Source of the DNA: a virus
Taxonomy: Duplodnaviria > Heunggongvirae > Uroviricota > Caudoviricetes
IMG/VR virus record: IMGVR_UViG_2908567220_000009
Length of the DNA: 41,636 nt
Strand: one strand, 5' to 3'
The first letter of the stretch is position 1; each line of letters begins with the position of its first letter. This document shows, one piece after another, positions 4,050 to 41,636 of the stretch. The notes below the pieces were generated by a model that saw only the letters and a program-made list of their open reading frames with translations, did no database searches and had not been told where the DNA came from. A program made the translations under genes and the position numbers.

Positions 4050-4121
4050 AGCGCCTTCTTCCCTTGGGTGATGCTGCCAACTTACTGATTTAGTGTATGA
4101 TGGTGTTTTTGAGGTGCTCCA

Positions 4122-4397
4122 GTGGCTTCTGTTTCTATCAGCTGTCCCTCCTGTTCAGCTACTGACGGGGTGGTGCGTAACGGCAAAAGCACCGCCGGAC
4201 ATCAGCGCTATCTCTGCTCTCACTGCCGTAAAACATGGCAACTGCAGTTCACTTACACCGCTTCTCAACCCGGTACGCACCAGAAAATCATTGATATGGC
4301 CATGAATGGCGTTGGATGCCGGGCAACTGCCCGCATTATGGGCGTTGGCCTCAACACGATTTTACGTCACTTAAAAAACTCAGGCCGCAGCCGGTAA
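4122..4397 (+). CDS. insA: IS1 InsA (transposition inhibitor / N-terminal part of InsAB')
   Basis: 91-aa [25 protein letters not shown]... with GTG start; the A6C frameshift motif TTAAAAAAC lies near 4371-4379. Confidence 0.95.
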
Positions 4398-4819
4398 CCT
4401 CGCGCATACAGCCGGGCAGTGACGTCATCGTCTGCGCGGAAATGGACGAACAGTGGGGCTATGTCGGGGCTAAATCGCGCCAGCGCTGGCTGTTTTACGC
4501 GTATGACAGTCTCCGGAAGACGGTTGTTGCGCACGTATTCGGTGAACGCACTATGGCGACGCTGGGGCGTCTTATGAGCCTGCTGTCACCCTTTGACGTG
4601 GTGATATGGATGACGGATGGCTGGCCGCTGTATGAATCCCGCCTGAAGGGAAAGCTGCACGTAATCAGCAAGCGATATACGCAGCGAATTGAGCGGCATA
4701 ACCTGAATCTGAGGCAGCACCTGGCACGGCTGGGACGGAAGTCGCTGTCGTTCTCAAAATCGGTGGAGCTGCATGACAAAGTCATCGGGCATTATCTGAA
4801 CATAAAACACTATCAATAA
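4316..4819 (+). CDS. insB: IS1 InsB frame (expressed as InsAB' transposase by programmed -1 frameshift)
   Basis: 167-aa ORF in the -1 frame relative to insA, C-terminus ...[15 protein letters not shown]. Confidence 0.9.
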
Positions 4820-4958
4820 GTTGGAGTCATTACCCTAAAGCAGTTCTCATTTCAGGTGTTATTCACTTATTCCTTCTTTGAGTCTCTCCAATTAAGTACG
4901 AAGTCGTTTCTGTTATGCAAACCATTTATTCCGAAAGGCTCAAGTTAAGGAATGTAGA

Positions 4959-5174
4959 ATGTCAAATAAAATGACTGGTTTAGTAAAATGGTTTAACGCT
5001 GATAAAGGTTTCGGCTTTATTTCTCCTGTTGATGGTAGTAAAGATGTGTTTGTGCATTTTTCTGCGATTCAGAATGATAATTATCGAACCTTATTTGAAG
5101 GTCAAAAGGTTACCTTCTCTATAGAGAGTGGTGCTAAAGGTCCTGCAGCAGCAAATGTCATCATTACTGATTAA
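4959..5174 (+). CDS. cspB: cold-shock protein, CspA family (CspB-like, 71 aa)
   Basis: [38 protein letters not shown]... carries the RNP1/RNP2 cold-shock-domain motifs. Position next to the holin matches the Qin order cspB-essQ. The symbol is from memory of K-12 paralogs. Confidence 0.85.
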
Positions 5175-5458
5175 AATTCATCGCTCGTCTGTATACGATA
5201 ACGAAGAAGGCTGATGCCTGAGTAGAGATACGGACAGAGTAGTGAATATTGGATCTCTTTAATAAAAAGTAAGGAGGTCCAATACATGAAACAATGGCCA
5301 GCATATTTGGCAAAATCTTAATCAGGAAAAGTATGCTAACCATTGTGGTGAAGTGCAGGTTTGCTGCATGAATAGTTTCACAGCAGAAGCTAACTGCTGG
5401 CATCGCAAAACAAAGTGCGTAAGTGGATGACTCCCACAAAAAGCACCACAATCTCAAA

Positions 5459-5478
5459 CCCGCTCAGGCGGGTTTTTT
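5459..5478 (+). terminator. rho-independent terminator-like hairpin
   Basis: CCCGC-TCAG-GCGGG stem-loop followed by TTTTTT, about 285 bp downstream of cspB. Confidence 0.5.
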
Positions 5479-5537
5479 ATTATCTGCTTTAAATATATTA
5501 TTAAAATATAAAAAATACTTGTTACTAATAAAATCAA

Positions 5538-5708
5538 TCAGGCTACAGCTTTAAGATTTGTCTGGAATACTTTGTTGCAATGAGGGCAGATCAAAAGGGC
5601 ACCTTTTTGTACTCTTGAAAAACTGTGTTCTGACTCTTGGGTGCAGTTTGGGCAGGAACATTTAACGAGATAATTACGGCGTGATTTTGAGTCTTTACGT
5701 TCTGACAT
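5538..5708 (-). CDS. ynfU: small zinc-ribbon protein (YnfU-like)
   Basis: 56 aa from MSERK with two CxxC pairs (CSCPNC...CPHC). The annotated ORF extends to 5759 by an alternative start. The symbol is tentative. Confidence 0.55.
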   Translation of the reverse strand: MSERKDSKSRRNYLVKCSCPNCTQESEHSFSRVQKGALLICPHCNKVFQTNLKAVA

Positions 5709-5927
5709 AGGCTTTTCCTGTATAAATGGCCGTATACAGTACACTAAATATGAAAACATTTCTCGTATTATTATTTTATATATGACTTTCTTTCAAAATA
5801 ATTACCCACATTTTTAATGTGTATGTTTTTTTAGCGCCGTTGAGAACAACGTGTGCTGTCAAAACTACCCCGTAGACTCCGATCTTTTCAAACATATTGC
5901 ACCATCCGTGTACATCGGGGTGAGGAT

Positions 5928-6143
5928 ATGAAATCAATGGATAAGTTAACAACAGGTGTTGCCTATGGCACATCGGCGGGTAATGCTGGTTTCTGGGCAT
6001 TGCAGTTACTCGATAAAGTAACTCCGTCACAGTGGGCTGCAATCGGTGTGCTGGGTAGCCTGGTTTTTGGCCTGCTGACGTATCTGACAAATCTTTATTT
6101 CAAGATTAAAGAAGACAGGCGTAAGGCTGCGAGAGGAGAGTAA
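5928..6143 (+). CDS. essQ: pinholin (phage 21 S21-type class II holin) with dual-start motif
   Basis: [71 protein letters not shown]: two TMDs and a charged C-terminus. Met1 and Met4 give the 71/68-aa antiholin/holin pair as I recall for S21. GAGGAT RBS upstream of 5928. Confidence 0.85.
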
Positions 6144-6147
6144 TCCA

Positions 6148-6455
6148 ATGACTCAAGACTATGAACTGGTTGTGAAAGGAGTCCGTAATTTTGAGAATAA
6201 AGTTACGGTAACTGTAGCCTTACAGGACAAAGAACGCTTTGACGGTGAAATTTTTGGCCTGGATGTCGCCATGGACCGTGTTGAAGGAGCTGCGCTGGAG
6301 TTTTATGAGGCAGCAGCCAGAATGAGCGTCCGGCAAGTCTTCCTGGAAGTAGCAGAAAAATTGTCAGAAAAAGTTGAGTCTTATCTGCAGCATCAGTACT
6401 CCTTTAAGATTGAAAATCCTGCCAATAAGCACGAGCGTCCTCATCATAAATATCT

Positions 6456-6459
<4 letters not shown>
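6148..6459 (+). CDS. ydfR: Qin-type prophage protein of unknown function (YdfR-like)
   Basis: 103-aa ORF between holin and endolysin with a good RBS (GAGAGGAG); its stop overlaps the endolysin start (ATGA). Confidence 0.65.
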
Positions 6460-7483
<1,024 letters not shown>

Positions 7484-7846
7484 ATTAATATTAAATCGGA
7501 TTATTTTTAGCGCTGAATGTGAAATTTAAATAAAAAGGACTCTTCCATGAGTCAAAATCCTTGAAATCTTAAGGGTAAGATAAAAGGTCATTAGACAGAA
7601 TGACACGTTTTATTAATAAATAAAGCTATTGTTTCATTCGTGTGTTTTTCTTTACAAAAGTAATCCTTGCTATGGTTGGTTAATCATGCGTTAATGGTGT
7701 TCTGGTTTGTTACAAAATTATCTGAAGCAGTCATTGTTATAATTTTATTATTTGTACCTCTTGAGATTTCCTTGTTGGTTTTTCTCTCTGATATTTTTTT
7801 TCGGACCATTCTGCCCAAGGGCTAACTTCTTCAAAAGGTAATAATG

Positions 7847-8059
7847 ATGTCTAACAAAATGACTGGTTTAGTGAAATGGTTTAACCCTGAAAAAGGTTTT
7901 GGTTTCATCACGCCGAAAGATGGTAGCAAAGATGTGTTTGTGCATTTCTCAGCTATTCAGAGCAACGATTTCAAAACGTTAACTGAGAATCAGGAAGTCG
8001 AATTTGGTATTGAGAACGGACCTAAAGGCCCTGCAGCTGTTCATGTAGTGGCACTTTGA
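7847..8059 (+). CDS. cspI: cold-shock protein, CspA family (CspI-like, 70 aa)
   Basis: [45 protein letters not shown]...; long AT-rich 5' leader (7484-7846) as in cspA-family genes; position after Rz as in Qin. Confidence 0.85.
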
Positions 8060-8266
8060 GGTAGAAAATATTACAAACCATATTCACTTTAGATGCCCGT
8101 GTTGCCATGGTTCTCAGTATAGAACATCATCTTTTGATGTTTCTGACAGAAATCCTTTCGGGGCAAAATGTATCTTTTGTAAATCAATGATGATTACATT
8201 TGATAATATTTCACAATACTTAAATGTTAGCCATCTGTCGTTAGATTTAAGAAAGTGAAAATGAAG

Positions 8267-8286
8267 GCTCCTTCGGGAGCTTTTTT
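8267..8286 (+). terminator. rho-independent terminator
   Basis: GCTCC-TTCG-GGAGC hairpin followed by TTTTTT, downstream of cspI. Confidence 0.6.
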
Positions 8287-8330
8287 GCTTAGTGTCTAGT
8301 CGATGGATACTCACATATTACGGTAACATT

Positions 8331-9409: not shown

Positions 9410-9495
9410 TCACCATAACTGCTAACCATTCTGACCATTTCACAAGTGACAGAGTCAATATCGTATTCTGTCACTGTAAGGCTAATACAGTACTG

Positions 9496-9500: not shown

Positions 9501-9511
9501 TGGATTTGCCC

Positions 9512-9826
9512 CTATATTTCCAGACATCTGTTATCACTTAACCCATTACAAGCCCGCTGCCGCAGATATTCCCGTGGCGAGCGATAACCCAGCGCACTAT
9601 GCGGATGCCATTCGTTATAATGCTCGAACGCCTCTGCAAGGTTCTTTGCTGCCGTTAACCCGTCTGGTTTGGGCATGATACTGATGTAGTCACGCTTTAT
9701 CGTTTTCACGAAGCTCTCTGCTATTCCGTTACTCTCCGGACTCCGCACCGCCGTGTTCTTCGGTTCAAGTCCCAACATCCGGGCGAACTGGCGTGTTTCA
9801 TTAGCCCGGTAGCATGAACCATTATC
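9512..9826 (-). pseudogene. insD: IS2 insD, C-terminal fragment (split by IS66-family insertion)
   Basis: Encodes ...[34 protein letters not shown]...[29 protein letters not shown], continuous with the N-terminal fragment at 12527-13129 once the insertion and one TSD copy are removed. Confidence 0.9.
9819..9826. repeat. 8-bp target-site duplication (CCATTATC) of the IS66-family element, left copy
   Basis: CCATTATC directly flanks both ends of the inserted element (9819-9826 and 12531-12538). Confidence 0.8.
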
Positions 9827-9911
9827 GTAACCGTCTCATTTAAACCGTCTTTCGCCTCCCTTTCCTGTTTCCGATACTAATGTCCATTTTCGCAGTAAAG
9901 GGACATTTAAG

Positions 9912-10562
9912 ATGAATGCACGAAAAGCGGTACTGGCAGACAATCCGGAATTGATCCTGCGTGTGCTACAGCTGAGATTTGACGAGTCACTGTCGTACCC
10001 GCGCATTTCTGCGCAGACCGGTGTCAGCAAAACCGCCATTTTTTCTCTGGTGAGGCGATTTCACCAGGTATTCACTGACTGGCCTCTTTCCGGTGAATAT
10101 TCCTGCGGGCAACTGGCCCGGGCTCTTTTCCCGGGGCGATACCCTTCAGCCCCGACCGTGACTCAGCCTGTGAAAGCAGAGAAACCCCGCCGGAACCGAT
10201 TTTCACCGGAGTTTAAATGGAGACTGGTTCAGCAAACTCTTTTACCCGGTGCCTGTGTCGCACAAATAGCTCGAGAGAATGGAATTAACGATAACCTGCT
10301 CTTTAACTGGCGGCATCTCTGGCGTAACGGTGGCCTGCAACCGCCCGGCGAACATGAAACATCGCTACTTCCCGTGACGTTAACTCCGGAGCCGGATAAT
10401 AAAATCCCGGCACCAGTGCAGATACCTGAACAGATAAATACACTGCCAGACAGTCTGTGCTGCGAGCTGGTTCTGCCGGCCGGAACTCTCAGGCTGAAAG
10501 GTGAACTGACACCGGCGTTATTACAGACACTTATCCGCGAAATGAAAGGGAGCAGCCACTGA
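9912..10562 (+). CDS. IS66-family accessory protein (orfA/TnpA)
   Basis: 216-aa ORF, first of three co-oriented ORFs inside the element; its stop overlaps the orfB start (ATGA). Confidence 0.75.
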   Translation: MNARKAVLADNPELILRVLQLRFDESLSYPRISAQTGVSKTAIFSLVRRFHQVFTDWPLSGEYSCGQLARALFPGRYPSAPTVTQPVKAEKPRRNRFSPEFKWRLVQQTLLPGACVAQIARENGINDNLLFNWRHLWRNGGLQPPGEHETSLLPVTLTPEPDNKIPAPVQIPEQINTLPDSLCCELVLPAGTLRLKGELTPALLQTLIREMKGSSH

Positions 10563-10909
10563 TGATATCTCTCCCTGCCGGTTCGCGTATCTGGCTGGTT
10601 GCCGGTATCACCGATATGCGAAATGGCTTTAACGGCCTGGCCTCAAAAGTTCAGAACGTCCTGAAGGATGACCCGTTCTCCGGGCATCTGTTCATCTTCC
10701 GCGGACGCCGGGGTGACCAGATAAAAGTGCTGTGGGCTGACAGTGACGGACTGTGCCTCTTCACCAAACGCCTGGAGCGGGGCCGCTTCGTCTGGCCGGT
10801 CACCCGCGATGGAAAGGTTCACCTTACTCCGGCTCAGTTGTCCATGCTTCTCGAAGGCATCGACTGGAAGCACCCGAAACGAACGGAACGCGCTGGCATC
10901 CGCATATAA
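10562..10909 (+). CDS. IS66-family Orf2 (TnpB-like)
   Basis: 115 aa MISLPAGSRIWLVAGITDMRNGFNGLASKV...; size and the conserved N-terminal motif fit IS66 Orf2. Confidence 0.85.
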   Translation: MISLPAGSRIWLVAGITDMRNGFNGLASKVQNVLKDDPFSGHLFIFRGRRGDQIKVLWADSDGLCLFTKRLERGRFVWPVTRDGKVHLTPAQLSMLLEGIDWKHPKRTERAGIRI

Positions 10910-10928
10910 CCCGTTGTAAAGTGAGGAT

Positions 10929-12500
10929 ATGGACACCTCACTTGCTCATGAGAATGCCCGCCTGCGGGCACTGTTGCAGACGCAACAGGACACCATCCGC
11001 CAGATGGCGAAATACAACCGCCTGCTCTCACAGCGGGTGGCGGCTTATGCTTCCGAAATCAACCGGCTGAAGGCGCTGGTTGCGAAACTGCAGCGCATGC
11101 AGTTCGGTAAAAGCTCAGAAAAACTTCGCGCTAAAACCGAACGGCAGATACAGGAAGCCCAGGAGCGAATCAGCGCACTTCAGGAAGAAATGGCGGAAAC
11201 GCTGGATGAGCAATATGACCCGGTACTGCCATCCGCCCTGCGCCAGTCTTCAGCCCGTAAGCCGTTACCGGCCTCACTTCCCCGTGAAACCCGGGTCATC
11301 CGGCCGGAAGAGGAATGCTGCCCGGCCTGTGGTGGTGACCTCAGTCCTCTGGGGTGTGATGTGTCAGAGCAACTGGAGCTTATCAGCAGCGCTTTTAAGG
11401 TTATCGAAACACAACGTCCGAAACTGGCCTGTTGCCGGTGCGACCATATCGTGCAGGCACCAGTACCTTCAAAACCCATTGCACGCAGTTATGCCGGAGC
11501 GGGGCTTCTGGCTCATATCGTCACCGGGAAGTATGCAGACCATCTGCCGTTATACCGCCAGTCAGAAATATACCTTCGTCAGGGCGTGGAACTGAGCCGC
11601 GCCACGCTGGGGCGCTGGACCGGTGCCGTTGCTGAACTGCTGGAGCCGCTGTATGACGTGCTGCGCCAGTATGTGCTGATGCCCGGTAAAGTCCATGCGG
11701 ATGATATCCCCGTTCCGGTCCAGGAGCCGGGCAGTGGTAAAACAAGAACTGCCCGGCTGTGGGTCTATGTCCGTGATGACCGTAACGCCGGTTCACAGAT
11801 GCCCCCGGCGGTCTGGTTCGCGTACAGCCCGGACCGGAAAGGTATCCATCCACAGAATCACCTGGCCGGTTACAGCGGTGTGCTTCAGGCAGATGCTTAC
11901 GGTGGTTACCGGGCGTTATACGAATCCGGCAGAATAACGGAAGCCGCGTGTATGGCCCATGCCCGGAGAAAAATCCACGATGTGCATGCAAGAGTGCCAA
12001 CCGACATCACCACGGAAGCCCTGCAGCGTATCGGTGAACTGTATGTCATCGAGGCAGAAGTCCGGGGATGTTCAGCAGAACAGCGTCTGGCAGCAAGAAA
12101 AGCCAGAGCGGCTCCACTGATGCAGTCACTGTATGACTGGATACAGGAACAGATGAAAACACTGTCGCGTCACTCGGATACGGCAAAAGCGTTCGCATAC
12201 CTGCTGAAACAGTGGGAGGCCCTGAACGTGTACTGCAGTAATGGCTGGGTGGAAATCGACAACAACATCGCAGAGAACGCCTTACGGGGAGTGGCCGTAG
12301 GCCGGAAAAACTGGCTCTTCGCGGGTTCCGACAGCGGTGGCGAACATGCGGCGGTGTTGTACTCGCTGATCGGCACATGCCGTCTGAACAATGTGGAACC
12401 AGAAAAATGGCTGCGTTACGTCATTGAGCATATCCAGGATTGGCCGGCAAACCGGGTACGCGATCTGTTGCCCTGGAAAGTTGATCTGACCTCTCAGTAA
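10929..12500 (+). CDS. IS66-family transposase (orfC/TnpC)
   Basis: 523 aa with an N-terminal leucine-zipper-like region, CxxC...CxxC zinc-finger motifs (CPACGG...CCRCDH) and a DDE-type core. Confidence 0.9.
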
Positions 12501-12526
12501 ATATCAATACGGTTCTGGCGAGCCGC

Positions 12527-13129
12527 TTACCCATTATCCGTCAGCCACTCCACTGGAGACGACGGAAGATCGTTGCCGAAGCGGCGTTCCACCGCTCCCA
12601 GCATGACGTCCTGTACTGTTTCACTGTTGAAGCCGCCGGTAGTGACCGCCCAGTGCAGTGCCTCACGATCACAGCAGTCCAGCGCGAACGTGACACGCAG
12701 TCTCTCTCCGTTATCACAGCAGAACTCGAACCCGTCAGAGCACCATCGCTGATTGCTTTCTTTCACGGCCACTCTGCCTGTATGTGCCCGTTTCGATGGC
12801 GGTACAGCAGGTTTTCGCTCAAGCAACAGCGCATTCTGGCGCATGATCCGGTAAACACGTTTGGCATTGATCGCAGGCATACCATCAAGTTCTGCCTGTC
12901 TGCGAAGCAGCGCCCATACCCGACGATAACCATACGTGGGCAGCTCTCCGATAACATGGTGTATACGGAGAAGCACATCCGTATCATCAGTGTGACGACT
13001 GCGGCGGCCATCCATCCAGTCATCGGTTCGTCTGAGAATGACGTGCAACTGCGCACGCGACACCCGGAGACAACGGCTGACTAAGCTTACTCCCCATCCC
13101 CGGGCAATAAGGGCGCGTGCGCTATCCAC
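12527..13129 (-). pseudogene. insD: IS2 insD, N-terminal fragment
   Basis: [34 protein letters not shown]...VEWLTDNG, ending in a stop created at the IS66 junction. Confidence 0.9.
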
Positions 13130-13452
13130 TTTTTTGCCCGTCCATATTCAACGGCTTCTTTGAGGAGTTCATTTTCCATCGTTTTCTTGCCGAGCAGGCG
13201 CTGGAGTTCTTTAATCTGCTTCATGGCGGCAGCAAGTTCAGAGGCAGGAACAACCTGTTCTCCGGCGGCGACAGCAGTAAGACTTCCTTCCTGGTATTGC
13301 TTACGCCAGAGAAATAACTGGCTGGCTGCTACACCATGTTGCCGGGCAACGAGGGAGACCGTCATCCCCGGTTCAAAGCTCTGCTGAACAATTGCGATCT
13401 TTTCCTGTGTGGTACGCCGTCTGCGTTTCTCCGGCCCTAAGACATCAATCAT
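13087..13452 (-). CDS. insC: IS2 InsC (OrfA, HTH protein)
   Basis: 121 aa from [41 protein letters not shown]...; the ORF track extends it upstream by an alternative start. Confidence 0.9.
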
Positions 13453-13543
13453 CTGTTCTCCAATGACTAGTCTAAAAACTAGTATTAAGACTATCACTTA
13501 AATAAGTGATATTGGTTGTCTGGAGATTCAGGGGGCCAGTCTA

Positions 13544-14554: not shown

Positions 14555-16653
14555 ATGGGTTTTTCATCAGCCCGAAATTTGGGAAGGGACATATCGGCAG
14601 GATTTTCCCCACCACGTCGCATGCCGATTTCGGAGGCTGTTAAAAAATTCATGCGTGTTCCCAAGGGGGCTGGTAACTCGGTGCCAGGGATCCTGAACTG
14701 ACACCCTACATCATTGAGCCCATGAACTGCCTGGCATCGCGTGAATACGATGCGGTGATTTTTGTTGGTCCTGCGCGAACAGGGAAGACCATTGGTCTGA
14801 TCGATGGATGGATTGTCTATACCATCGTTTGCGATCCTTCGGACATGCTCGTTGTGCAGATGACCGAAGATAAGGCCCGCGAGCATTCTAAAAAGCGCCT
14901 CGACAGAACGTTCAGAAGCAGTGCGGCGGTAAAGAAAAGAATGAGTCCACGTCGTAACGACAATAATGTCCATGATAAGACGTTCAGGGATGGCTCGTTC
15001 CTTAAAATTGGTTGGCCCTCGGTCAACATTATGTCGTCGTCGGATTACCGGTTTGTCGCCTTAACCGATTACGACCGTTTTCCGGAGAATATCGACAGCG
15101 AGGGTGATGGTTTCTCCCTGGCCTCAAAACGTACCACCACATTTATGTCCGCCGGGATGACTCTGGTGGAGAGCTCGCCGGGACGTGACATCTGCGACAG
15201 CAAATGGCGACGTAAGTCGCCTCATGAAGCGCCACCGACGACTGGTATTCTTTCCCTTTACAATCGTGGTGACCGCCGCCGCTGGTACTGGTCATGTCCG
15301 CACTGCGGTGAATATTTTCAGCCAGCCATGGATGCCATGACCGGCTACCGTAATGAACCGGATCCCTTTAAAGCCAGTGAGGCGGCGTATCTACTTTGCC
15401 CGCACTGCAGCGGCATTATCACTGCGGAGAAAAAGCGTGAGCTCAATAGTGCAGGAGTCTGGTTGCGTGAAGGTCAGGTCATTGATCGTAACGGCAACGT
15501 TTCCGGTGAACCGCGCCGCTCCCGTATCGCCAGTTTCTGGATGGAAGGGCCAGCTGCTGCGTATCAGACCTGGGCGCAACTGGTTTACAAATTACTGACT
15601 GCAGAACAGGAGTATGAAGCGACAGGAAGCGAAGAAACACTCAGGGCGGTTATCAACACCGACTGGGGATTGCCTTATCTTCCTCGTGCCAGCATGGAGC
15701 AACGAAAAAGTGAACTGCTTGAGCAGCGGGCAGAGCCAGTTCCTTCCCGCAGTGTGCCGGATGGCATTAATTTCCTTGTGGCGACAGTGGATGTGCAGGC
15801 GGGACGTCATCGCCGTTTTGTGGTTCAGGTAACGGGCTATGGCAGTCGTGGCGAACGCTGGATTATTGATCGTTACAACATCACGCAGTCATTGCGCAGT
15901 GACTGCGACGGGGAGAGCCAGCGAATTGATCCGGCCAGCTATCCGGAAGACTGGGATGTCCTGCTGACGGATGTTTTTCATAAAAGCTGGCCGCTGGCCT
16001 CCGATCCTTCTCAACAAATGCGACTGATGGCAATGGCGGTGGACTCCGGCGGTGAAGACGGGGTCACTGATAATGCCTATAAATTCTGGCGTCGTTGCCG
16101 TCGTGATGGCCTTGGTAAACGTATTTACCTGTTTAAGGGTGACAGCATCCGGCGCGCAAAACTGATCAGCCGTACATTCCCTGATAACACCGGACGAACG
16201 GGCCGCCGGGCGCAGGCCGCAGGTGATGTGCCGCTCTGGCTTCTTCAGACGGATGCCCTGAAAGACCGGGTGAATAACGCGTTATGGCGTGACTCGCCAG
16301 GTCCAGGCTATGTGCATTTCCCTGACTGGCTGGGGAGCTGGTTTTACGACGAACTGACGTATGAAGAGCGAAGCAGTGACGGGAAATGGAGTAAGCCGGG
16401 TCGCGGTGCCAACGAAGCTTTTGACCTGATGGTGTATGCCGAGGCTCTGGTCATTCTGCATGGATACGAAAAGATCCGCTGGCCGGATGCACCGGAGTGG
16501 GCGAGCCGGGAAACCTGGCTGGAGTGTGTCCAGGACAGTACCGAACCGTCATCCTCACCGGAACCGGTATCCACGCCTGTTAAAAAACAAAAACGGAAGA
16601 AAACAGTAACTGACGATGTTAACCCCTGGCTGACTTCCGGAGGATGGTTATGA
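14555..16653 (+). pseudogene. terminase large subunit (lambda gpA family) interrupted by a frameshift near 14681-14700
   Basis: ATG at 14555 with a strong RBS (AGGAGG) encodes 48 aa ending at a TGA (14699-14701). The remaining 643-aa frame (annotated from 14722, open from 14677) is displaced by one nucleotide. Homology to lambda gpA is continuous across the break (VPKGAGNS / RDPELTPYIIEPMNCLAS versus lambda LPKESAYQEGRWETLPFQRAIMNAMGS). Confidence 0.8.
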
Positions 16654-33117: not shown

Positions 33118-33128
33118 GTGGGGTGAAT

Positions 33129-36100
33129 ATGGCAGTAAAGATTTCAGGTGTACTGAAAGACGGTGCAGGTAAACCGGTACAGAACTGCACAATCCAGCTG
33201 AAAGCAAAACGTAACAGCACCACGGTGGTGGCGAACACGGTGGCCTCAGAAAATCCGGATGAAGCCGGGCGTTACAGCATGGACGTTGAGTACGGTCAGT
33301 ACAGCGTTATTCTGTTGGTGGAAGGCTTCCCGCCATCGCATGCCGGGACCATCACCGTGTATGAAGACTCACAACCGGGTACGCTGAATGATTTTCTCGG
33401 TGCCATGACGGAGGATGATGTCCGTCCGGAGGCACTGCGCCGCTTTGAACTGATGGTGGAAGAGGTGGCGCATAACGCGTCCGCAGTGGCACAGAACACG
33501 GCTGCCGCAAAGAAGTCAGCCAGCGATGCCGGCACATCTGCCCGTGAGGCGGCAACCCATGCAACCGATGCCGCAGGCTCAGCACGTGCAGCCAGCACGT
33601 CAGCCGGACAGGCCGCTTCGTCGGCTCAGTCAGCATCTTCCAGCGCAGGAACGGCATCAACAAAGGCCACTGAAGCATTAAAAAGTGCTGCCGCCGCAGA
33701 GTCTTCAAAAAGCGCGGCAGCCACCAGTGCCGGTGCGGCGAAAACGTCAGAAACGAATGCTGCAGCGTCACAAAAATCTGCAGCCACTTCTGCATCCACC
33801 GCGACCACGAAAGCGTCAGAAGCTGCCACCTCATCCCGGGATGCGGCGGCCTCAAAAGAGGCAGCGAAATCATCAGAAACGAACGCATCATCAAGTGCCA
33901 GTAGTGCAGCTTCCTCGGCAACGGCGGCAGGAAATTCCGCGAAGGCCGCAAAAACGTCTGAGACGAATGCGGATAACAGCGCACAGGCGGCAGCAGACTC
34001 ACAAACTGCATCGGCAAACTCCGCGACAGCAGCCAAAAAATCAGAAACCAACGCGAAAAATAGCGAGGCAGCAGCAAAGAGCAGCGAAACCAACGCTAAA
34101 GCCAGCGAAACTAATGCTAAATCCAGTGAAACAAACGCGGCGAAATCTGCAGCGGACGCACTTAATTATCGCAACCAGGCGCAAGGGATTGTAGGCACCA
34201 GCATCGGCCTCGGGGCATCACCGCGTGATTGTCCTGATATTTCCGGCAACCCATCAGGGTATATCGGATTTATGCGCATTATGAGTAATGCAAAAGGCTT
34301 TCCATCGATTGCATCCGGTGAAAGCAGTCTTACGGGGTTTATTAGTCAGGTAGATGGAACTCCAGCGTATACAGGTGTATTTCAGGGATGGGCTACGCGC
34401 TCGCTTTATACTTATCGCTGGAATCCGACAACAGGCCCGCAATGGACACGTCACGCTCGCAAAAATGAAGTGGACCGTCTTGACCAATGGAATAGCGAAA
34501 CATGGATATATAACCATGATAAATCCATGCGCCTGGGTTTAACCGGATCAACATGGGGGTGTTACAGCGACACACAAAAAAAATGGATACCGCTTGATGT
34601 TTCTCATGGTGGCACTGGCGCAAATAGCCTTGATGACGCCAAAACTAATTTGCAAATCCCTGAGGGTGGATTAACAAAAGCGATGACCCTTAATGCCCCT
34701 GGTGGTGCAGTGGATGGCAAATACTACCCTGTCATAATAGACACATCCGCAATGAATGGGAGCGGTGCCATGTTATGTCCTGTTGAAATAAAAACAGCAG
34801 GAGGTCCGGCATCAAATCCGCTTAATAGTAACTCATTTTTTGGGTTCATTCGATGTGGTGGCTGGAGTGACGTTCGCGATGTGGCTTACGGGTCATTTGT
34901 TTGCTATGAAAAAAATGAACTCGGGATACTTTGCATTAAAGCGTCGCAAAGAGATTATGCGCAGCATGTAGCTTTCTACATCCATAAAAGCGCTTTTCCT
35001 GTCGTTGTGCAAACTGGCTACAAGGCAAAAGTTAAGGTTCCAACAGAAGACTACGTAATTGGTGACAACGGGGTTAGATATAAGTTTGGTGTATCAACGT
35101 CAACGGAGGATAACGACAAGAACTTTGTTAAAAATGTTCTTGACTTCACTGGCGGTGAACATGGCTTCTACAGCAACCTTCCGTTCAGACAAGGGGTGTC
35201 AGAAAGGATTGCATTAACAAATGGCCTGAGTTTTGACAAAAATTTTACCGTCACTATTCCTATATTTGTAAACAATGGTCAGATTAAAGCAACACAATCT
35301 TTCACCGCGTACGGTACGGACGTTTCAAACAGAACATTTGTTTCTCAAAGATTACAATCCGAAGGAGGTCCGGTTGTCGATCAAACTGAACTAAGGGCCG
35401 CTAACGCTTCTGGTGAAATTGTTGTCAGGGACATAAATAATTCAGGGAACAGTAAGTTCTTTAATTTTAACCTTGATGGTACCTTCAGTTCTTATCAGGG
35501 ATTGGTTGTTCACACAGGGCAAAACTGGAGCACTCAACATACAGAGAATGTAAATAAGTTTAAGCCAATAGCAGGGAGCGCAGGTGGTCCTGACGGAACA
35601 ATGGTTGTTGGCGGATTCCATGCTCAATTTAGCGGTAATTACGTCACACAATTCGCCGGTCGCAACTCCAAATTTTGGGTAAGAAGCTTTGAGGCTGGGG
35701 TTGATAAGGGATGGAAACGACTATTAACAGTAGACGATCTTAATTCATCTACCGATCTTGCTGTCAGGTCATTAACCACATCTAACCCGGTAAAATCTGG
35801 CGGAGGGCGAATTGATGTCCTTGGAAGCACGTCAGACTATAGCAAAATGGATTGCTTTGTACGTGGGTTTGATAGCACCGGTAATTCTCTCGCGTGGGCG
35901 TTGGGTTCATCAGTCGGCGTAAGTAAGATGCTGTCGCTAAAAAATTTCTTTAGCGGAGCTGAGATACTGCTAAATGGTAATGACGGCGCGGTTCAACTCA
36001 AAACAGGTGCTGTTAACGGGGCTACAGCGCAGGCGCTCACTATCAACAGGAATGAGGTTAACTCAACCGTTGATTTAACCCTTACAAAGCAATCAGGGAC

Positions 36101-36731
36101 TGGTAATCGTTTTGTTTTACAGAACTCAGGTAATGCAGAACTACCGTTTTCTGTGAGGGTGTGGGGTTCCAGTACTCGACAAAACGTTTTTGAGGTTGGA
36201 ACGTCTGCTGCGTATCTGTTTTATGCGCAAAAAACGTCAGCAGGCCAGTTGTTTGATGTAAATGGCGCTATTAATTGCACAACGCTGAATCAGTCTTCAG
36301 ACCGCGACCTTAAAGACGATATTCTCGTTATCAGCGACGCGACGAAAGCAATCCGTAAAATGAACGGATACACCTACACGCTCAAGGAAAACGGGATGCC
36401 TTATGCTGGCGTTATTGCCCAGGAAGTAATGGAGGCGATACCAGAAGCTGTGGGATCGTTTACTCATTATGGTGAAGAGTTGCAGGGACCAACGGTTGAC
36501 GGCAATGAATTACGTGAAGAAACACGTTATCTGAATGTTGACTACGCCGCCGTGACTGGCTTACTTGTTCAGGTCGCCCGTGAAACAGATGATCGCGTTA
36601 CCGCGCTGGAAGAGGAAAACACAACGCTACGTCAAAATCTGGCAACAGCAGGCACCCGGATCAGCACTCTGGAAAATCAGGTAAGCGAACTGGTTGCACT
36701 TGTCCGGCAGTTAACAGGAAGCGAACATTGA
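33129..36731 (+). CDS. stf: side tail fibre protein (lambda Stf-like N-terminus, divergent distal domain, C-terminal intramolecular chaperone / S74-type domain)
   Basis: About 1200 aa. The N-terminus MAVKISGVLKDGAGKPVQNCTIQLKAKRNSTTV... and the Ala/Ser/Thr-rich KSSETNA-type repeats match lambda Stf. The distal part is AT-rich and unrelated. The C-terminus contains the SDRDLKDDI motif typical of self-cleaving intramolecular chaperone domains. Confidence 0.85.
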   Translation: MAVKISGVLKDGAGKPVQNCTIQLKAKRNSTTVVANTVASENPDEAGRYSMDVEYGQYSVILLVEGFPPSHAGTITVYEDSQPGTLNDFLGAMTEDDVRPEALRRFELMVEEVAHNASAVAQNTAAAKKSASDAGTSAREAATHATDAAGSARAASTSAGQAASSAQSASSSAGTASTKATEALKSAAAAESSKSAAATSAGAAKTSETNAAASQKSAATSASTATTKASEAATSSRDAAASKEAAKSSETNASSSASSAASSATAAGNSAKAAKTSETNADNSAQAAADSQTASANSATAAKKSETNAKNSEAAAKSSETNAKASETNAKSSETNAAKSAADALNYRNQAQGIVGTSIGLGASPRDCPDISGNPSGYIGFMRIMSNAKGFPSIASGESSLTGFISQVDGTPAYTGVFQGWATRSLYTYRWNPTTGPQWTRHARKNEVDRLDQWNSETWIYNHDKSMRLGLTGSTWGCYSDTQKKWIPLDVSHGGTGANSLDDAKTNLQIPEGGLTKAMTLNAPGGAVDGKYYPVIIDTSAMNGSGAMLCPVEIKTAGGPASNPLNSNSFFGFIRCGGWSDVRDVAYGSFVCYEKNELGILCIKASQRDYAQHVAFYIHKSAFPVVVQTGYKAKVKVPTEDYVIGDNGVRYKFGVSTSTEDNDKNFVKNVLDFTGGEHGFYSNLPFRQGVSERIALTNGLSFDKNFTVTIPIFVNNGQIKATQSFTAYGTDVSNRTFVSQRLQSEGGPVVDQTELRAANASGEIVVRDINNSGNSKFFNFNLDGTFSSYQGLVVHTGQNWSTQHTENVNKFKPIAGSAGGPDGTMVVGGFHAQFSGNYVTQFAGRNSKFWVRSFEAGVDKGWKRLLTVDDLNSSTDLAVRSLTTSNPVKSGGGRIDVLGSTSDYSKMDCFVRGFDSTGNSLAWALGSSVGVSKMLSLKNFFSGAEILLNGNDGAVQLKTGAVNGATAQALTINRNEVNSTVDLTLTKQSGTGNRFVLQNSGNAELPFSVRVWGSSTRQNVFEVGTSAAYLFYAQKTSAGQLFDVNGAINCTTLNQSSDRDLKDDILVISDATKAIRKMNGYTYTLKENGMPYAGVIAQEVMEAIPEAVGSFTHYGEELQGPTVDGNELREETRYLNVDYAAVTGLLVQVARETDDRVTALEEENTTLRQNLATAGTRISTLENQVSELVALVRQLTGSEH

Positions 36732-36734
36732 TAT

Positions 36735-36906
36735 CCTTCAAGCCCTGAAGGAGGCTGTTCCCGGTACGTTCAGACTGTTGTTGAGCTGGAGATCGCAACG
36801 GAGGAAGAGAAAGCGTTACTGGCCGCATGGAAAAAGTATCGGGTGTTGCTGAACCGTGTTGATACGTCAACTGCACAGGATATTGAATGGCCAGCACTGC
36901 CGTAGG
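36735..36906 (+). pseudogene. tfa: tail fibre assembly protein (tfa) 3' remnant
   Basis: Frame encodes ...[41 protein letters not shown], matching the conserved C-terminus of lambda-type Tfa. There is no start codon and an in-frame stop lies immediately upstream. Confidence 0.75.
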
Positions 36907-37002
36907 GTAAAACATATAAATTCTATAATTAGATGTATCTTTCCATTTACGGCAAGGAAGGGGGCTTGGAAGACGTAAAGCATCTCACACCGAGATTATT
37001 TT

Positions 37003-37593
37003 TTATATGTCAGGTGTCTGAAGTTTTGCTTTGGCTCTTAAAATGGTTTGCCGCGAGGTTATGAATTCCCGGGCAATGGCACTTATACTTACACCTGACT
37101 TAATTCGTTCGAATACCACCTGTTTCTGTTCTTTATTTAACACAGGTGGTCGACCAAAACGTTTCCCTGCGCCGCGGGCTCTTACTATCCCGGAATGAGT
37201 GCGTTCAAGTAAAAGGTCTCGTTCAAATTCAGCGACTGCTGAAATTACTTGCATCATCATTTTTCCTGTTGGACTGGTCAGGTCAATGCCCCCCAATGCT
37301 AAGCAATGCACTCTGATACCTGTTTCGGTCAGTTGTTCCACTGTTTTCCTGATATCCATTGCATTACAACCAAGGCGATCCAGTTTTGTCACAATCAATT
37401 GATCACCACATTTCAGGCGAGCAAGCAACCGGTTAAAACCAGGACGCTCACTGGTTGCTGCTGAGCCGCTAATGTGTTCTTCGATTATTTGCTGAGGTTT
37501 GATTTTAAAACCTGCACTTTCGATTTCCCGGCGTTGATTTTCGGTGGTCTGATCCAGCGTTGATATCCGACAGTAAGCAAAAATTCGAGACAT
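37003..37593 (-). CDS. pinQ: serine recombinase (Pin-type invertase/resolvase family)
   Basis: 196 aa [29 protein letters not shown]... with the catalytic Ser in the RISTLDQ motif and a C-terminal HTH; located after stf/tfa as pinQ/pinR are in Qin/Rac. Q versus R symbol not resolved. Confidence 0.8.
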
Positions 37594-37909
37594 AGTGAGA
37601 CTCTATACGAAATTGGTGTTCATATCATAATGCATCTCAGAAAATAATTTTGATTATTTTTGTGCATATTTGTATGTACACGTTCGAAAATAAACGAATG
37701 CGTATGCAACCCCGTAATTTTGGTGAGACCCAAAATCGATTTTGTGAAAAATGGCTTTAACTCGGTTTGTTTTTCGAGTTCCGGGCGGACTCAAGGAAGA
37801 AGAATAGTGTTGCGTGTTATTTTAACCAGATTTCAAGTTGTTTGGTCGTGGAAAAGTGGAGCAAAATGTTGTTAAAGTGGAAAAATGATAAAAAAGTAAG
37901 TTTATTATA

Positions 37910-38176
37910 TTACATTTTACCATTTAAATTTTGGTTGTCTTTAAGAACTGATATCGCTGTTTGTAATAATTCTTTGTTATCCAGCCATGATTTTTTCTTT
38001 ATGTTTCCTTCAATGTAATCAAGCAATGTTCTGGTATTGATAGGTCTTCCCTGTTTTGCTACTTCCACTACAGCATCCCCTAGGATAATTCTTACTTCAG
38101 GAAGCTGCGCAGGAAACCACTTTAGGGTGTCTTTTGATTTCATGAAGATATTCCTTAAAATATTATTGATTTTCAT
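37910..38176 (-). CDS. ydfK: YdfK/YnaE-family small prophage protein
   Basis: ORF ending ...MKSKDTLKWFPAQLPEVRIILGDAVVEVAKQGRPINTRTLLDYIEGNIKKK...; terminal gene of Qin/Rac-type prophages. Likely true start at 38143 (MKSKD); the region is AT-rich. Confidence 0.7.
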   Translation of the reverse strand: MKINNILRNIFMKSKDTLKWFPAQLPEVRIILGDAVVEVAKQGRPINTRTLLDYIEGNIKKKSWLDNKELLQTAISVLKDNQNLNGKM

Positions 38177-38687
38177 TGCGATATTGTATGTCTGATTCAG
38201 GATATGTTGACTTATACATCGGTTTTGTCCGGGTTATTGGATATGCCAATCCCTAATTTTATTAGGGCATGACTAAAAATGCTGAATATGATAAGGAGAG
38301 AAGTGATTATCAGTATGCTGTTCATATAGCCTCGAATTAGTAATGTGTTATATATGATATAGTTGACAATTTTTATCTTGGGTGTTCTTAAAGTTCGTAG
38401 ATAAACATTGTCGTTTCAGGTATACAGGAATGCTAACAGGTGGCAGCAAAAATCAGGCGGTTTATGGCGCAAGCTGAAGCGGCAACTGCAAACACTATTT
38501 TATGCAGAGACTCTACACGGATTGGGTTTAAAAGTATACATAGATAACAGTTTTTATCTGAAAAAGAAAAATATCAAGGTGATATAGCCTATATGCCTTT
38601 GATGCGGAGGAATGAATGTGATGGGAGTGATGGGTGATGCTGCCAACTTACTGATTTAGTGTATGATGGTGTTTTTGAGGTGCTCCA

Positions 38688-38963
38688 GTGGCTTCTGTTT
38701 CTATCAGCTGTCCCTCCTGTTCAGCTACTGACGGGGTGGTGCGTAACGGCAAAAGCACCGCCGGACATCAGCGCTATCTCTGCTCTCACTGCCGTAAAAC
38801 ATGGCAACTGCAGTTCACTTACACCGCTTCTCAACCCGGTACGCACCAGAAAATCATTGATATGGCCATGAATGGCGTTGGATGCCGGGCAACTGCCCGC
38901 ATTATGGGCGTTGGCCTCAACACGATTTTACGTCACTTAAAAAACTCAGGCCGCAGTCGGTAA
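38688..38963 (+). CDS. insA: IS1 InsA
   Basis: Identical protein to the copy A InsA. Confidence 0.95.
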
Positions 38964-39385
38964 CCTCGCGCATACAGCCGGGCAGTGACGTCATCGTCTG
39001 CGCGGAAATGGACGAACAGTGGGGCTATGTCGGGGCTAAATCGCGCCAGCGCTGGCTGTTTTACGCGTATGACAGTCTCCGGAAGACGGTTGTTGCGCAC
39101 GTATTCGGTGAACGCACTATGGCGACGCTGGGGCGTCTTATGAGCCTGCTGTCACCCTTTGACGTGGTGATATGGATGACGGATGGCTGGCCGCTGTATG
39201 AATCCCGCCTGAAGGGAAAGCTGCACGTAATCAGCAAGCGATATACGCAGCGAATTGAGCGGCATAACCTGAATCTGAGGCAGCACCTGGCACGGCTGGG
39301 ACGGAAGTCGCTGTCGTTTTCAAAATCGGTGGAGCTGCATGACAAAGTCATCGGGCATTATCTGAACATAAAACACTATCAATAA
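38882..39385 (+). CDS. insB: IS1 InsB frame
   Basis: 167 aa; one substitution relative to copy A (S versus P at residue 26). Confidence 0.9.
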
Positions 39386-39400
39386 GTTGGAGTCATTACC

Positions 39401-40824
39401 CTGTTTATGATCGTAATAACCTGACCCCAAGAATTGTTCATTTAGGCTTTGGTGCATTTCACCGTGCGCATCAGGGCGTGTATGCCGATATTCTTGCTAC
39501 GGAACATTTCAGTGACTGGGGATATTATGAGGTCAACTTAATCGGCGGCGAACAGCAAATTGCCGATTTACAACAGCAAGATAATCTTTATACCGTTGCG
39601 GAAATGTCGGCCGACGCGTGGACGGCTCGCGTCGTTGGCGTCGTTAAAAAAGCCTTGCACGTACAAATAGATGGCTTAGAAACCGTGCTGGCTGCGATGT
39701 GTGAACCGCAAATTGCGATTGTCTCTCTGACAATCACCGAAAAAGGGTATTTCCACTCTCCGGCGACCGGACAGTTAATGCTCGATCACCCGATGGTCGC
39801 TGCCGACGTGCAAAATCCCCACCAGCCGAAAACAGCAACAGGGGTGATTGTTGAGGCGCTGGCTCGCCGTAAAGCGGCAGGACTTCCCGCATTTACCGTC
39901 ATGTCATGTGACAACATGCCAGAAAACGGTCATGTTATGCGTGACGTTGTCACTTCCTACGCGCAAGCCGTTGATGTAAAACTGGCACAATGGATCGAAG
40001 ATAACGTGACTTTCCCATCAACAATGGTGGACCGTATTGTGCCCGCAGTGACAGAGGATACGCTGGCGAAAATCGAACAACTTACCGGTGTGCGCGATCC
40101 TGCGGGCGTTGCCTGTGAACCTTTCCGCCAGTGGGTAATAGAAGATAACTTTGTTGCCGGACGTCCGGAATGGGAAAAAGCGGGAGCCGAACTGGTTAGC
40201 GATGTGCTGCCTTATGAAGAGATGAAGTTGCGCATGCTCAACGGCAGTCATTCATTCCTGGCGTATTTGGGTTATCTTGCGGGATATCAGCACATTAATG
40301 ACTGCATGGAAGATGAACATTATCGTTATGCGGCGTATGGCTTGATGTTGCAGGAACAAGCGCCGACGCTGAAAGTGCATGGCGTTGATTTGCAAGATTA
40401 CGCTAACCGATTAATTGAACGCTATAGCAACCCGGCGTTACGCCATCGAACCTGGCAGATTGCGATGGATGGCAGCCAGAAATTGCCACAGCGGATGTTG
40501 GATTCTGTTCGCTGGCATCTGGCGCATGACAGCAAGTTCGAGCTGCTGGCACTGGGCGTCGCGGGTTGGATGCGTTATGTCGGTGGTGTTGATGAACAGG
40601 GAAATCCGATTGAAATCAGTGACCCACTGTTACCTGTTATTCAGAAGGCTGTACAAAGTAGTGCCGAAGGGAAAGCGCGCGTCCAGTCATTGCTGGCGAT
40701 TAAGGCGATTTTTGGTGATGATTTGCCAGATAATAGCTTGTTTACTGCAAAAGTGACGGAAGCGTACTTGTCTTTATTAGCGCATGGTGCGAAAGCGACC
40801 GTGGCGAAATATTCCGTGAATTAA
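39401..40824 (+). pseudogene. ydfI: mannitol-dehydrogenase-family oxidoreductase (YdfI/UxuB-like), 5'-truncated by IS1
   Basis: The reading frame is open from the IS1 boundary; it encodes ...[15 protein letters not shown] (Rossmann GxGxxH motif) ...[11 protein letters not shown]...[12 protein letters not shown]..., typical of fructuronate/mannonate reductases. About 12 N-terminal codons and the promoter are missing. Confidence 0.8.
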
Positions 40825-40830
40825 AAAAGC

Positions 40831-40851
40831 AATGCCGCCATCGGCGGCATT
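40831..40851 (-). terminator. terminator between convergent ydfI and ydfZ
   Basis: AATGCCGCC-ATC-GGCGGCATT hairpin preceded by AAAAAA on the plus strand, which is a T-run for the minus-strand ydfZ transcript. Confidence 0.65.
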
Positions 40852-40858
40852 CACACGC

Positions 40859-41062
40859 TTAGTTCATGCCGAGACGAATCAGGTCCAGAGGTGCCAGTTT
40901 CTCTTCACAACCTTCAACAACTACGGTTTTTCCGCGGCGGATTTGCTCAGCGGTCAGACCTTCAGTATCAATCGACAGGATCTTGCCAGTGTGACCGGTG
41001 CCGCTAACCATAACACGGCTGCCAGTGGTGATTGCGTTACGGTTACGATCGTAGGTCGTCAT
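40859..41062 (-). CDS. ydfZ: small conserved protein YdfZ
   Basis: 67 aa [67 protein letters not shown]; chromosomal neighbour of ydfI in E. coli. Confidence 0.8.
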
Positions 41063-41244
41063 AGGTGTTTTCTCCTTTCTGATTTACAGTCGAAGCCCAC
41101 GTAACGGGCGCAATATAAATACTCCTGTCGAGTGAAATATTTTTTGTTTTTGATCAAGCTCACATCTTTTTTGATGCATGCATGAGCCATAAGGCGGGCG
41201 AAAGACTCTCACCCCGGATGGGATGAGAGGAAATGAATTACTCG

Positions 41245-41636
41245 GTAATGACTCCAACTTATTGATAGTGTTTTATGTTCAGATAATGCCCGATGACTTT
41301 GTCATGCAGCTCCACCGATTTTGAGAACGACAGCGACTTCCGTCCCAGCCGTGCCAGGTGCTGCCTCAGATTCAGGTTATGCCGCTCAATTCGCTGCGTA
41401 TATCGCTTGCTGATTACGTGCAGCTTTCCCTTCAGGCGGGATTCATACAGCGGCCAGCCATCCGTCATCCATATCACCACGTCAAAGGGTGACAGCAGGC
41501 TCATAAGACGCCCCAGCGTCGCCATAGTGCGTTCACCGAATACGTGCGCAACAACCGTCTTCCGGAGACTGTCATACGCGTAAAACAGCCAGCGCTGGCG
41601 CGATTTAGCCCCGACATAGCCCCACTGTTCGTCCAT
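41245..41636 (-). mobile_element. IS1, copy C (inverted, partial: continues beyond window end)
   Basis: Starts with the reverse complement of the IS1 right end (GGTAATGACTCCAACTTATTGATAGTG) and contains the insB 3' part on the minus strand. Confidence 0.9.
41259..41636 (-). CDS. insB: IS1 InsB frame (partial, runs off window)
   Basis: 125-aa C-terminal part [26 protein letters not shown]...HYLNIKHYQ. Confidence 0.85.

Follow-up and report, generated by a model that had tools for sequence, protein, structure and literature searches.

The window analysed here, a stretch of DNA of 41,636 nucleotides numbered from its first letter, contains three ordinary IS1 elements, termed A, B and C, whose arrangement very probably reflects the decay of a prophage, with A and B left behind by IS1-associated deletions and C acquired by simple insertion. 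The identity of the elements, the positions of their junctions, the DNA missing at A and B, the target-site duplication (TSD) and empty site of C, and the order of B before C were all read directly from the alignments described below.

The prophage and its setting

Over 12,159 nt the window is 100% identical to the genome of the porcine ETEC strain CV839-15 (CP024978.1; locus L003), whose assembly was built with PacBio libraries of 8-10 kb. It covers a defective lambdoid prophage of the Qin type sited at rspB/ydfJ, as evident from an integrase end located by rspB, an opposite end with tail fibre, pinQ and ydfK located by ydfJ/ydfI, and a gene content typical of Qin. The succession of int and rspB is found in the gene table of locus L012, and two further loci, L001 and L002, supplied annotation and alignments at 99%. 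The features of the window are the following:

2-1282, minus strand: prophage integrase (gene table of L012); the left prophage end adjoins rspB just beyond the window
1317-1553, minus strand: xis
1641-4066, minus strand: exonuclease gene (YdfE/RecE-like) without its first 46 nt, left flank of A
4067-4834, plus strand: IS1 copy A, complete, 768 bp; insA at 4122-4397 and insB at 4316-4819
4835-38632, plus strand: late block between A and B, 33,798 bp, collinear with intact Qin-type prophages
38633-39400, plus strand: IS1 copy B, complete, 768 bp
39401-40824, plus strand: ydfI without its first 37 nt, right flank of B
40859-41062, minus strand: ydfZ, intact, between B and C (L003 11382-11585, PF14001)
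41235-41243, no strand: left TSD copy of C, GAATTACTC; the right copy lies just past the window end
41244-41636, minus strand: IS1 copy C, inverted and running past the window end, first 393 of 768 bp in the window

The block between A and B encodes cspB, a lysis cassette composed of holin, ydfR, lysozyme and Rz, cspI, gnsB, terminase, portal, capsid and tail genes, followed by J, lom, tail fibre, pinQ, ydfK and ynfT, and it harbours a nested IS2/IS66 insertion. These names, which were transferred from the annotation of L002 and from Pfam tables, bear out the proposal of the first-pass annotation that the two copies flank the lysis cassette, the csp morons and the morphogenesis module.

Three complete IS1 elements

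A, B and the full-length C, which is seen in the source genome at L003 11767-12534, all comprise 768 bp and share the ends GGTGATGCTGCCAACTTACTGAT and GGTAATGACTCCAACTTATTGAT, with imperfect terminal inverted repeats of about 23 bp that agree at 18 of 23 positions. Their 91-residue open reading frames match PF03811 (E 1e-21) and PF12759 (E 5e-31) and thus correspond to InsA with its zinc ribbon and helix-turn-helix, and the 167-residue frames of A and B and the partial frame of C match the DDE transposase family PF03400 (DDE_Tnp_IS1, E 6e-78) and correspond to InsB. As in other members of the family, insA and insB' are connected by a -1 frameshift at an A6C motif, which in A is found at 4371-4379 (TTAAAAAAC), and matching copies in relatives are labelled as IS1A/IS1B-family transposases in RefSeq. 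The location, common orientation and near-identity of A and B had been recognized correctly, with 766 of 768 bases in common, differences at IS1 nt 325 and 687, and a distance of 34,566 bp from start to start. C had likewise been described as inverted, although with a start at 41245 that has to be placed at 41244, because the GGTAATGACTCC end already begins with the G at this position. The sequence of C is identical to that of A, whereas its orthologue in locus L004 differs. At nt 325 both A and C carry a C in place of the usual T, which in the InsAB' frame replaces Ser by Pro and is synonymous in InsA, a change that may be either genuine or an artefact of polishing.

Missing DNA at copies A and B

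Neither A nor B is flanked by a TSD. The 9-mers adjoining A are CTTCCCTTG on the left and CTAAAGCAG on the right, those adjoining B are GGAGTGATG and CTGTTTATG, and no match of any length is found between the two sides of either copy, nor any crosswise match between the flanks of A and those of B. A comparison of all six flank 9-mers, crosswise and as reverse complements, revealed no match besides the TSD of C itself. Within the same window, the IS2 and the IS66-family element retain TSDs of 5 and 8 bp, respectively, and in related loci, further IS1 copies have TSDs of 8-9 bp or else lie at deletions.

At copy A, window positions 1-4066 align with positions 3001-7066 of the intact prophage L002 at 99.3%, and the alignment restarts at L002 18487, corresponding to window position 4835. 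L002 has no IS1 at this site and carries 11,420 bp that are unmatched in the window; this size is taken from a locus that itself contains about 1.1 kb of an incomplete ISEsa1, and the real loss may be closer to 10 kb. The missing stretch extends from codon 16 of the exonuclease to the cspF-cspB spacer and, by the annotation of L002 from ydfD through cspF, includes the 5' end of the exonuclease gene, ydfD, dicB, the immunity and replication genes, relBE, hokD, rem, ydfU, the Q antiterminator and cspF. The intact exonuclease has 823 residues in L002 and in nine of ten other contexts of the identical integrase, and 833 in the tenth (L041). In all ten it is followed by ydfD-dicB, and in nine immunity genes come next, their place being occupied by an IS3-family transposase in L041. 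Searches for identical copies of the lysozyme and the integrase showed both proteins to be widespread, with a complete early region as their usual context.

The left junction of A is present in two other assemblies (the genomes sharing it are GCA_964051545.1 and GCA_903981555.1). It recurs in a contig of 2.6 Mb from another genome, in which late genes directly follow IS1 and the early region is absent. The right junction, in which IS1 abuts CTAAAGCAG, was found in the source assembly CP024978 only, with no match in metagenome contigs, and an exact-pattern scan for the left junction gave no match in a one-genome-per-species contig collection of which CV839-15 is not part. Among the complete E. 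coli genomes of RefSeq, none covered at least 80% of either junction query. Locus L011 shares the left junction of A exactly, but its right junction is located 568 bp farther (window position 5404) and cspB is gone, which by the positions of these junctions appears to be a nested deletion at the site of A. The IS1 of L011 differs from A at 5 nt and its flanks are about 99.9% identical. Since strain 1506 carries a diverged IS1 only 8 bp away from the left junction of A, at a separate and independent site, an independent insertion of the L011 element at a hot spot is formally possible. Four other near-contiguous matches to the junctions similarly proved to be separate, independent IS1 sites: the cspB'-IS1-'ydfJ arrangement in PC6, the IS1 in the ydfJ-ydfI spacer of ZH142, that at nt 72 of ydfI in ES3 and that in the Rac region of JSMCR1.

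At copy B, window positions 36000-38632 align with L001 3001-5633 at 99.8%, and the alignment restarts at L001 7339-7341, with window position 39401 equivalent to 7341. L001 has no IS1 at this site and contains 1,707 bp extra, which comprise the right prophage end with the boundary between phage and ydfJ, and thus the right attachment boundary of the prophage, a truncated remnant of ydfJ and the first 37 nt of ydfI. The left junction of B recurs in five other assemblies and the right junction in three, the genomes that share B being GCA_900450385.1, GCA_903973565.1, GCA_001615305.1, GCA_001615295.1 and GCA_022976335.1, and a 1.96-Mb NCTC contig is among the independent assemblies that repeat the junctions of B and C.

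Because DNA is missing at both junctions, A and B are rearranged IS1 copies and not exceptions to the TSD rule of their family, and a decay of the duplications by point mutation can be ruled out for the same reason. Among the relatives examined, none shows the flanks of A or B without IS1 and with nothing missing.

Copy C and its target duplication

The absence of a TSD that had been ascribed to all three copies thus holds for A and B, but not for C, which in the source genome lies between two perfect 9-bp copies of its target, GAATTACTC, where L003 reads aaatGAATTACTC, IS1, GAATTACTCttcgc. This agrees with the 9-bp, occasionally 8-bp, duplications of the IS1 family and is not apparent within the window, because only one junction of C lies there. 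The corresponding empty site with a single copy of GAATTACTC is present in locus L005 and in five unrelated E. coli loci. C is an ordinary insertion, and since L005 contains the right junction of B but an empty site at C, it occurred later than B. C is located 3 nt downstream of the stop codon of rspR (ydfH), which is intact. Of the two K-12 genes that had been suspected to be missing, ydfJ is gone and ydfH is not.

Discussion

Two classical routes could account for the footprints of A and B. In one, a resident IS1 would undergo intramolecular replicative transposition into nearby DNA ('adjacent deletion'), which would retain one original junction and generate a new one. In the other, homologous recombination would take place between two IS1 copies in the same orientation. 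Adjacent deletions promoted by IS1 were reportedly described in the gal region by Reif and Saedler in 1975. Either route would leave a single IS1 without a TSD, and to judge by these footprints either may have acted at A and at B. Among the recovered relatives, none had at the site of A or B a lone IS1 with its TSD and all DNA in place, or a pair of flanking IS1 copies. C inserted later, with its canonical 9-bp duplication. The loss of TSDs by recombination between insertion sequences or by adjacent deletion is documented (PMC11708052), and in the E. coli long-term evolution experiment (LTEE) a Qin-like prophage was lost in 6 of 12 populations, most rearrangements overall being IS-mediated (PMC4173774).

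The same footprint has been attributed to a one-step, TSD-free, non-canonical event (Ngan et al. 2024; PMC11708052), in which IS1 would have been captured at a chromosomal break during the deletion, at A, B or both, with no earlier resident IS1 or normal target cleavage. That study describes exactly this footprint, an IS lying centrally in a deletion and lacking a TSD, and none of the relatives recovered here represents an intermediate with a resident IS1. We nevertheless regard this origin as improbable, since the two classical routes give an identical footprint, 14 of 14 LTEE cases in the same study can be classified as adjacent deletions, and the nested series defined by L011 suggests a resident IS1 at the site of A that made or joined a second deletion. 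Still less credence is given to a collapse of the assembly across IS1 repeats at one or both junctions, in which case the DNA would still be present. Such collapse would be facilitated by the multi-copy nature of IS1, the right junction of A is found in CP024978 alone, and the identity of A and C, in light of the different orthologue of C in L004, may hint at repeat polishing. However, both junctions of B and those of C repeat in independent assemblies including the 1.96-Mb NCTC contig, the left junction of A repeats in the 2.6-Mb contig, with IS1 directly preceding late genes in the absence of an early region, and the PacBio libraries easily span 768 bp.

The arrangement of A and B had also been likened to a composite transposon, a resemblance that applies to its formal architecture but not to its history. 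Tn9 consists of two IS1 copies in direct orientation around a segment, and A and B, both complete, with transposase genes and intact ends (the outer ones being IRL of A and IRR of B), flank the late block in this way. It is, however, highly unlikely that the two copies and the intervening DNA have moved to their present location as a unit, since the outer flanks, CTTCCCTTG and CTGTTTATG, share no duplication. Intact Qin-type prophages at the native rspB/ydfJ site show both flanks and the block in collinear arrangement, the window lacking only 11.4 kb and 1.7 kb relative to them, and instead of an empty site or a second location, we found the block at its ancestral chromosomal position. With 35.3 kb the unit would also be very long, and according to Chandler and colleagues (1982), IS1-flanked transposons are said to transpose less often with growing size. 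As a weaker alternative, the IS1-bounded late block of 35 kb might still be mobile or capable of amplification as a unit of the Tn9 type, with phage lysis and structural genes as its cargo. The inverted orientation of C relative to A and B could in turn suggest that IS1-mediated or IS1 x IS1 inversions have swapped flanks between copies, thereby generating A and B without TSDs, and E. coli commonly undergoes inversions between IS copies of opposite orientation (PMC4173774). We consider this equally implausible, as C keeps its own TSD, the flanking 9-mers match no flank of another copy in either orientation, and no segment departs in order or strand from the reference prophages or from the ydfI-ydfZ-rspR locus. 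Thus, of the deletions or inversions by which the first-pass annotation had explained the absent TSDs, the deletions are supported at A and B, the inversions are not, and C is a plain insertion.

The reading of A and B as products of IS1-associated deletions bears on the prophage, for which we infer that it would no longer be inducible or excisable, because its control, replication and Q genes and its right attachment end, and with them the repressor, have been removed. As nearly identical direct repeats, A and B could support one more recombination that would remove the late block, as had been proposed, and we predict that the remaining 34.6 kb are removable by a single such event between A and B, with a loss of 34,566 bp. 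For annotation, ydfJ should be listed as absent, ydfI and the exonuclease gene as 5'-truncated pseudogenes and ydfH (rspR) as intact, and the case of C illustrates that the TSD of an element running off a window cannot be judged there.

Collectively, the pattern of A, B and C reflects already known IS1 biology in the course of ordinary prophage decay, and its significance beyond CV839-15 is slight. It provides a clean natural case of a stepwise erosion of a prophage by IS1, in which the genes for control, replication and antitermination fell to one deletion and the right attachment end to another, and a relative appears to have undergone a further nested one.

The three elements resemble the IS1A-type copies of E. 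coli K-12 and B in their 768 bp, their ends, insA and insB, the A6C site and, at C, the 9-bp TSD, with no structural differences. The prophage shares with Qin of K-12 the integration site, the order of genes, with int, xis and exonuclease towards rspB and tail fibre, pinQ and ydfK towards ydfJ/ydfI, and the morons cspB, cspI, gnsB and ydfK. Qin of K-12 retains dicABC, relBE and quuQ and has lost its morphogenesis genes, and the present prophage is its reverse, with late genes retained and the early region deleted at A. Tn1681 is an IS1-flanked composite transposon carrying the STa gene of ETEC, and in elements of the Tn9 and Tn1681 type two complete IS1 copies likewise surround a DNA segment, in direct orientation as in Tn9; in contrast to these, the flanking TSD is absent here and the segment of 33.8 kb resides in its ancestral context, with no sign of past movement. 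The closest likeness in footprint is to IS1 adjacent deletions and the IS x IS deletions of the LTEE (PMC4173774; PMC11708052), which also leave one IS at the junction without a TSD, form series anchored at one IS end and preferentially remove prophage remnants including the Qin-like locus, although those events were observed as they occurred, whereas the ones described here are deduced from natural isolates.

Results

Three copies of IS1 and their flanks

A repeat search detected a 768-bp element present three times in the window, termed copies A, B and C:

4067-4834, plus strand, IS1 copy A, junctions read
38633-39400, plus strand, IS1 copy B, junctions read
from 41244, inverted, IS1 copy C, 393 bp within the window, then past its end

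The copies, which share the ends GGTGATGCTGCCAACTTACTGAT and GGTAATGACTCCAACTTATTGAT and contain InsA (91 residues; PF03811, PF12759) and InsB (167 residues; PF03400) reading frames with the frameshift site TTAAAAAAC between them, are ordinary IS1 elements and apparently intact. The positions, shared orientation and near-identity of A and B described in the first-pass annotation hold, with 766 of 768 bases matching and mismatches at IS1 nucleotides 325 and 687; the start of C, placed there at 41245, shifts by one base, the G at 41244 being the first of its GGTAATGACTCC end.

The window is 100% identical over a 12,159-nt overlap to CP024978.1, a chromosome assembly based on PacBio and Illumina data from the porcine enterotoxigenic strain CV839-15 (PMC5824013), and its arrangement was found in no RefSeq complete E. 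coli genome. Since the source locus extends beyond the window end, copy C can be read there in full and shows no differences from A. Both carry C at nucleotide 325 (window 4391 in A; beyond the window in copy C), and T occupies this position in B, in the orthologous C copy of an NCTC relative and in all other IS1 copies examined. In L011, a relative on a 2.6-Mb contig (GCA_964051545.1), one distinct variant set is common to all three IS1 copies. Such sharing suggests gene conversion among copies within one genome or, alternatively, an artefact of repeat polishing.

Comparison of the flanking 9-mers of A (CTTCCCTTG and CTAAAGCAG) and B (GGAGTGATG and CTGTTTATG) revealed no duplication of any length, no crosswise match and no reverse-complement match. 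This absence of target-site duplications (TSDs) is meaningful, as simple insertions in the window have retained theirs:

9501-13543, IS2 with 5-bp TSD CAATT, between the gnsB/ydfO region and the terminase genes
9827-12530, IS66-family element splitting IS2, with its own 8-bp TSD CCATTATC

The IS2 is unbroken in L011, and the IS66-family insertion is thus the later of the two.

DNA missing at copies A and B

The closest intact prophage found, that of E. coli 08-00022 (L002), adjoins rspB and is free of IS1 at the A site. Its genes run in the order int, xis, exonuclease, ydfD, dicB, ydfB/A, repressor, cro, ydaT, replication genes, ydfW, flxA, ydfV, relBE, hokD, rem, ydfU, ydfT (Q antiterminator), cspF, cspB, essD, ydfR, rrrQ, rzpQ and cspI, with terminase and tail genes beyond. 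Window 1-4066 aligns to positions 3001-7066 of this locus at 99.3% and breaks off within the exonuclease gene, whose first 46 nt are left out, and the match restarts at 18487, 124 nt upstream of cspB, leaving 11,420 bp missing from the window. Some 1.1 kb of this stretch in L002 belongs to a partial ISEsa1, so that the DNA originally lost may have been closer to 10 kb. The identical integrase occurs in ten further contexts. In each, a full-length exonuclease (823 residues in nine, 833 in the context L041) is followed by ydfD and dicB, and immunity genes come next in all except L041, which has an IS3-family transposase there. This intact early region identifies the state of the window as derived.

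At the B site, NCTC9064 (L001) lacks IS1 and shows the order tail fibre, tfa', pinQ, ydfK, ynfT, 'ydfJ, ydfI, ydfZ and rspR. Window 36000-38632 aligns to its positions 3001-5633 at 99.8%, and the match restarts after IS1 at 7339-7341. The 1,707 bp of L001 missing from the window comprise:

the final ~300 bp of the prophage, including the phage/ydfJ boundary
the ydfJ remnant
the first 37 nt of ydfI

Five further assemblies have the left side of the B junction and three have the right side, a 1.96-Mb NCTC contig among them; the junction is real and common to a clade.

Copy C as a simple insertion

In the source locus, copy C is flanked by aaatGAATTACTC and GAATTACTCttcgc, a perfect 9-bp duplication, and the site is single-copy (GAATTACTC) in the relative L005 and in five unrelated E. 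coli loci, which together define C as a simple insertion. Since L005 contains the right junction of B, including the B-diagnostic T at nucleotide 687, C is younger than B. It follows the stop codon of rspR (ydfH) after 3 nt; the full-length frame of this gene, 228 residues, lies just beyond the window. The first-pass annotation, which had found no TSD at any copy and suspected loss of ydfJ and ydfH, was thus right about the unmatched flanks of A and B and about ydfJ, and mistaken about C and ydfH.

Related IS1 junctions

L011, a true relative as judged by its shared IS2 insertion, has an exonuclease/IS1 junction identical to the left junction of A, and the far side of its IS1 meets window position 5404, 568 bp further in, with cspB lost. 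One end fixed and the other variable is how IS1-promoted adjacent deletions classically appear, as reportedly described by Reif and Saedler in 1975; a second IS1 insertion followed by recombination between the copies would equally produce this picture. Of two further IS1 copies in L011, one has a 9-bp TSD (ATTGATTTG) and the other marks a deletion of 1,270 bp in which int was lost. Between A and its L011 counterpart there are 5 nucleotide differences, though the flanks are ~99.9% identical. E. coli 1506 (L010, position 5293) carries an independent, diverged IS1 without TSD in the same exonuclease gene and orientation, 8 bp from the left junction of A (window 4066/4067), with foreign DNA beyond; the site may be a local hot spot. 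Both observations point to homogenisation of copies or to such a hot spot.

Neighbouring genes

Copy A reads towards cspB, which with its upstream region occupies 4835-5174; only 124 nt remain before the start codon. As csp leaders are about 160 nt long, cspB has probably lost its native cold-shock promoter and some of its long 5'UTR. A 200-nt direct repeat (4959-5158 and 7847-8046, 73% identity) reflects the paralogous genes cspB and cspI. Compared with L002, one nucleotide is missing near 14687 in the large terminase gene (~14555-16653); the L011 protein has its full 699 residues, and the longest frame in the window starts only at 14722 (643 residues). This is either a real frameshift inactivating TerL or a homopolymer sequencing error.

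Discussion

The best-supported history comprises two independent IS1-associated deletions, at A and B, and a later simple insertion of C. The earlier reading of absent TSDs as a trace of IS1-mediated deletion is thus borne out at A and B, where the missing DNA also rules out duplications that have merely decayed. The inversions proposed alongside find no counterpart in the order and strand of the segments, all of which are as in the references, and C has its own TSD. Transposition of A and B as a composite, also envisaged there, is at odds with outer flanks that share no duplication and with a block that, like its surroundings, has kept its ancestral place in a prophage at the native rspB/ydfJ site. 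Assembly collapse is unlikely across B and the left junction of A, where independent assemblies agree, and is formally conceivable at the right junction of A, which is known from the source assembly alone.

Each deletion could have arisen when a resident IS1 transposed within the same molecule or when two IS1 copies recombined, and the one-step break-capture proposed by Ngan et al. (PMC11708052) is a conceivable further route. We infer that the deletions cost the prophage its repressor/cro, replication and Q genes, a stretch immediately downstream of Q that would be expected to contain a late promoter, and the right attachment boundary, leaving it neither inducible nor excisable. A single recombination between A and B as 768-bp direct repeats would delete 34,566 bp and leave exonuclease'-IS1-'ydfI. 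A natural analogue of this predicted deletion is found in E. coli PC6 from pig faeces (L009, 6125-7326), where a Qin-type prophage lacks its entire late half at a single TSD-less IS1 in the arrangement cspB'-IS1-'ydfJ. In the long-term evolution experiment, 6 of 12 populations lost the Qin-like locus by deletion, and recombination between IS copies was the source of most rearrangements overall (PMC4173774). The events described here are textbook IS1 behaviour at a well-known cryptic-prophage locus, and the remnant, having kept its late genes and lost the early ones, is a mirror image of Qin in K-12.
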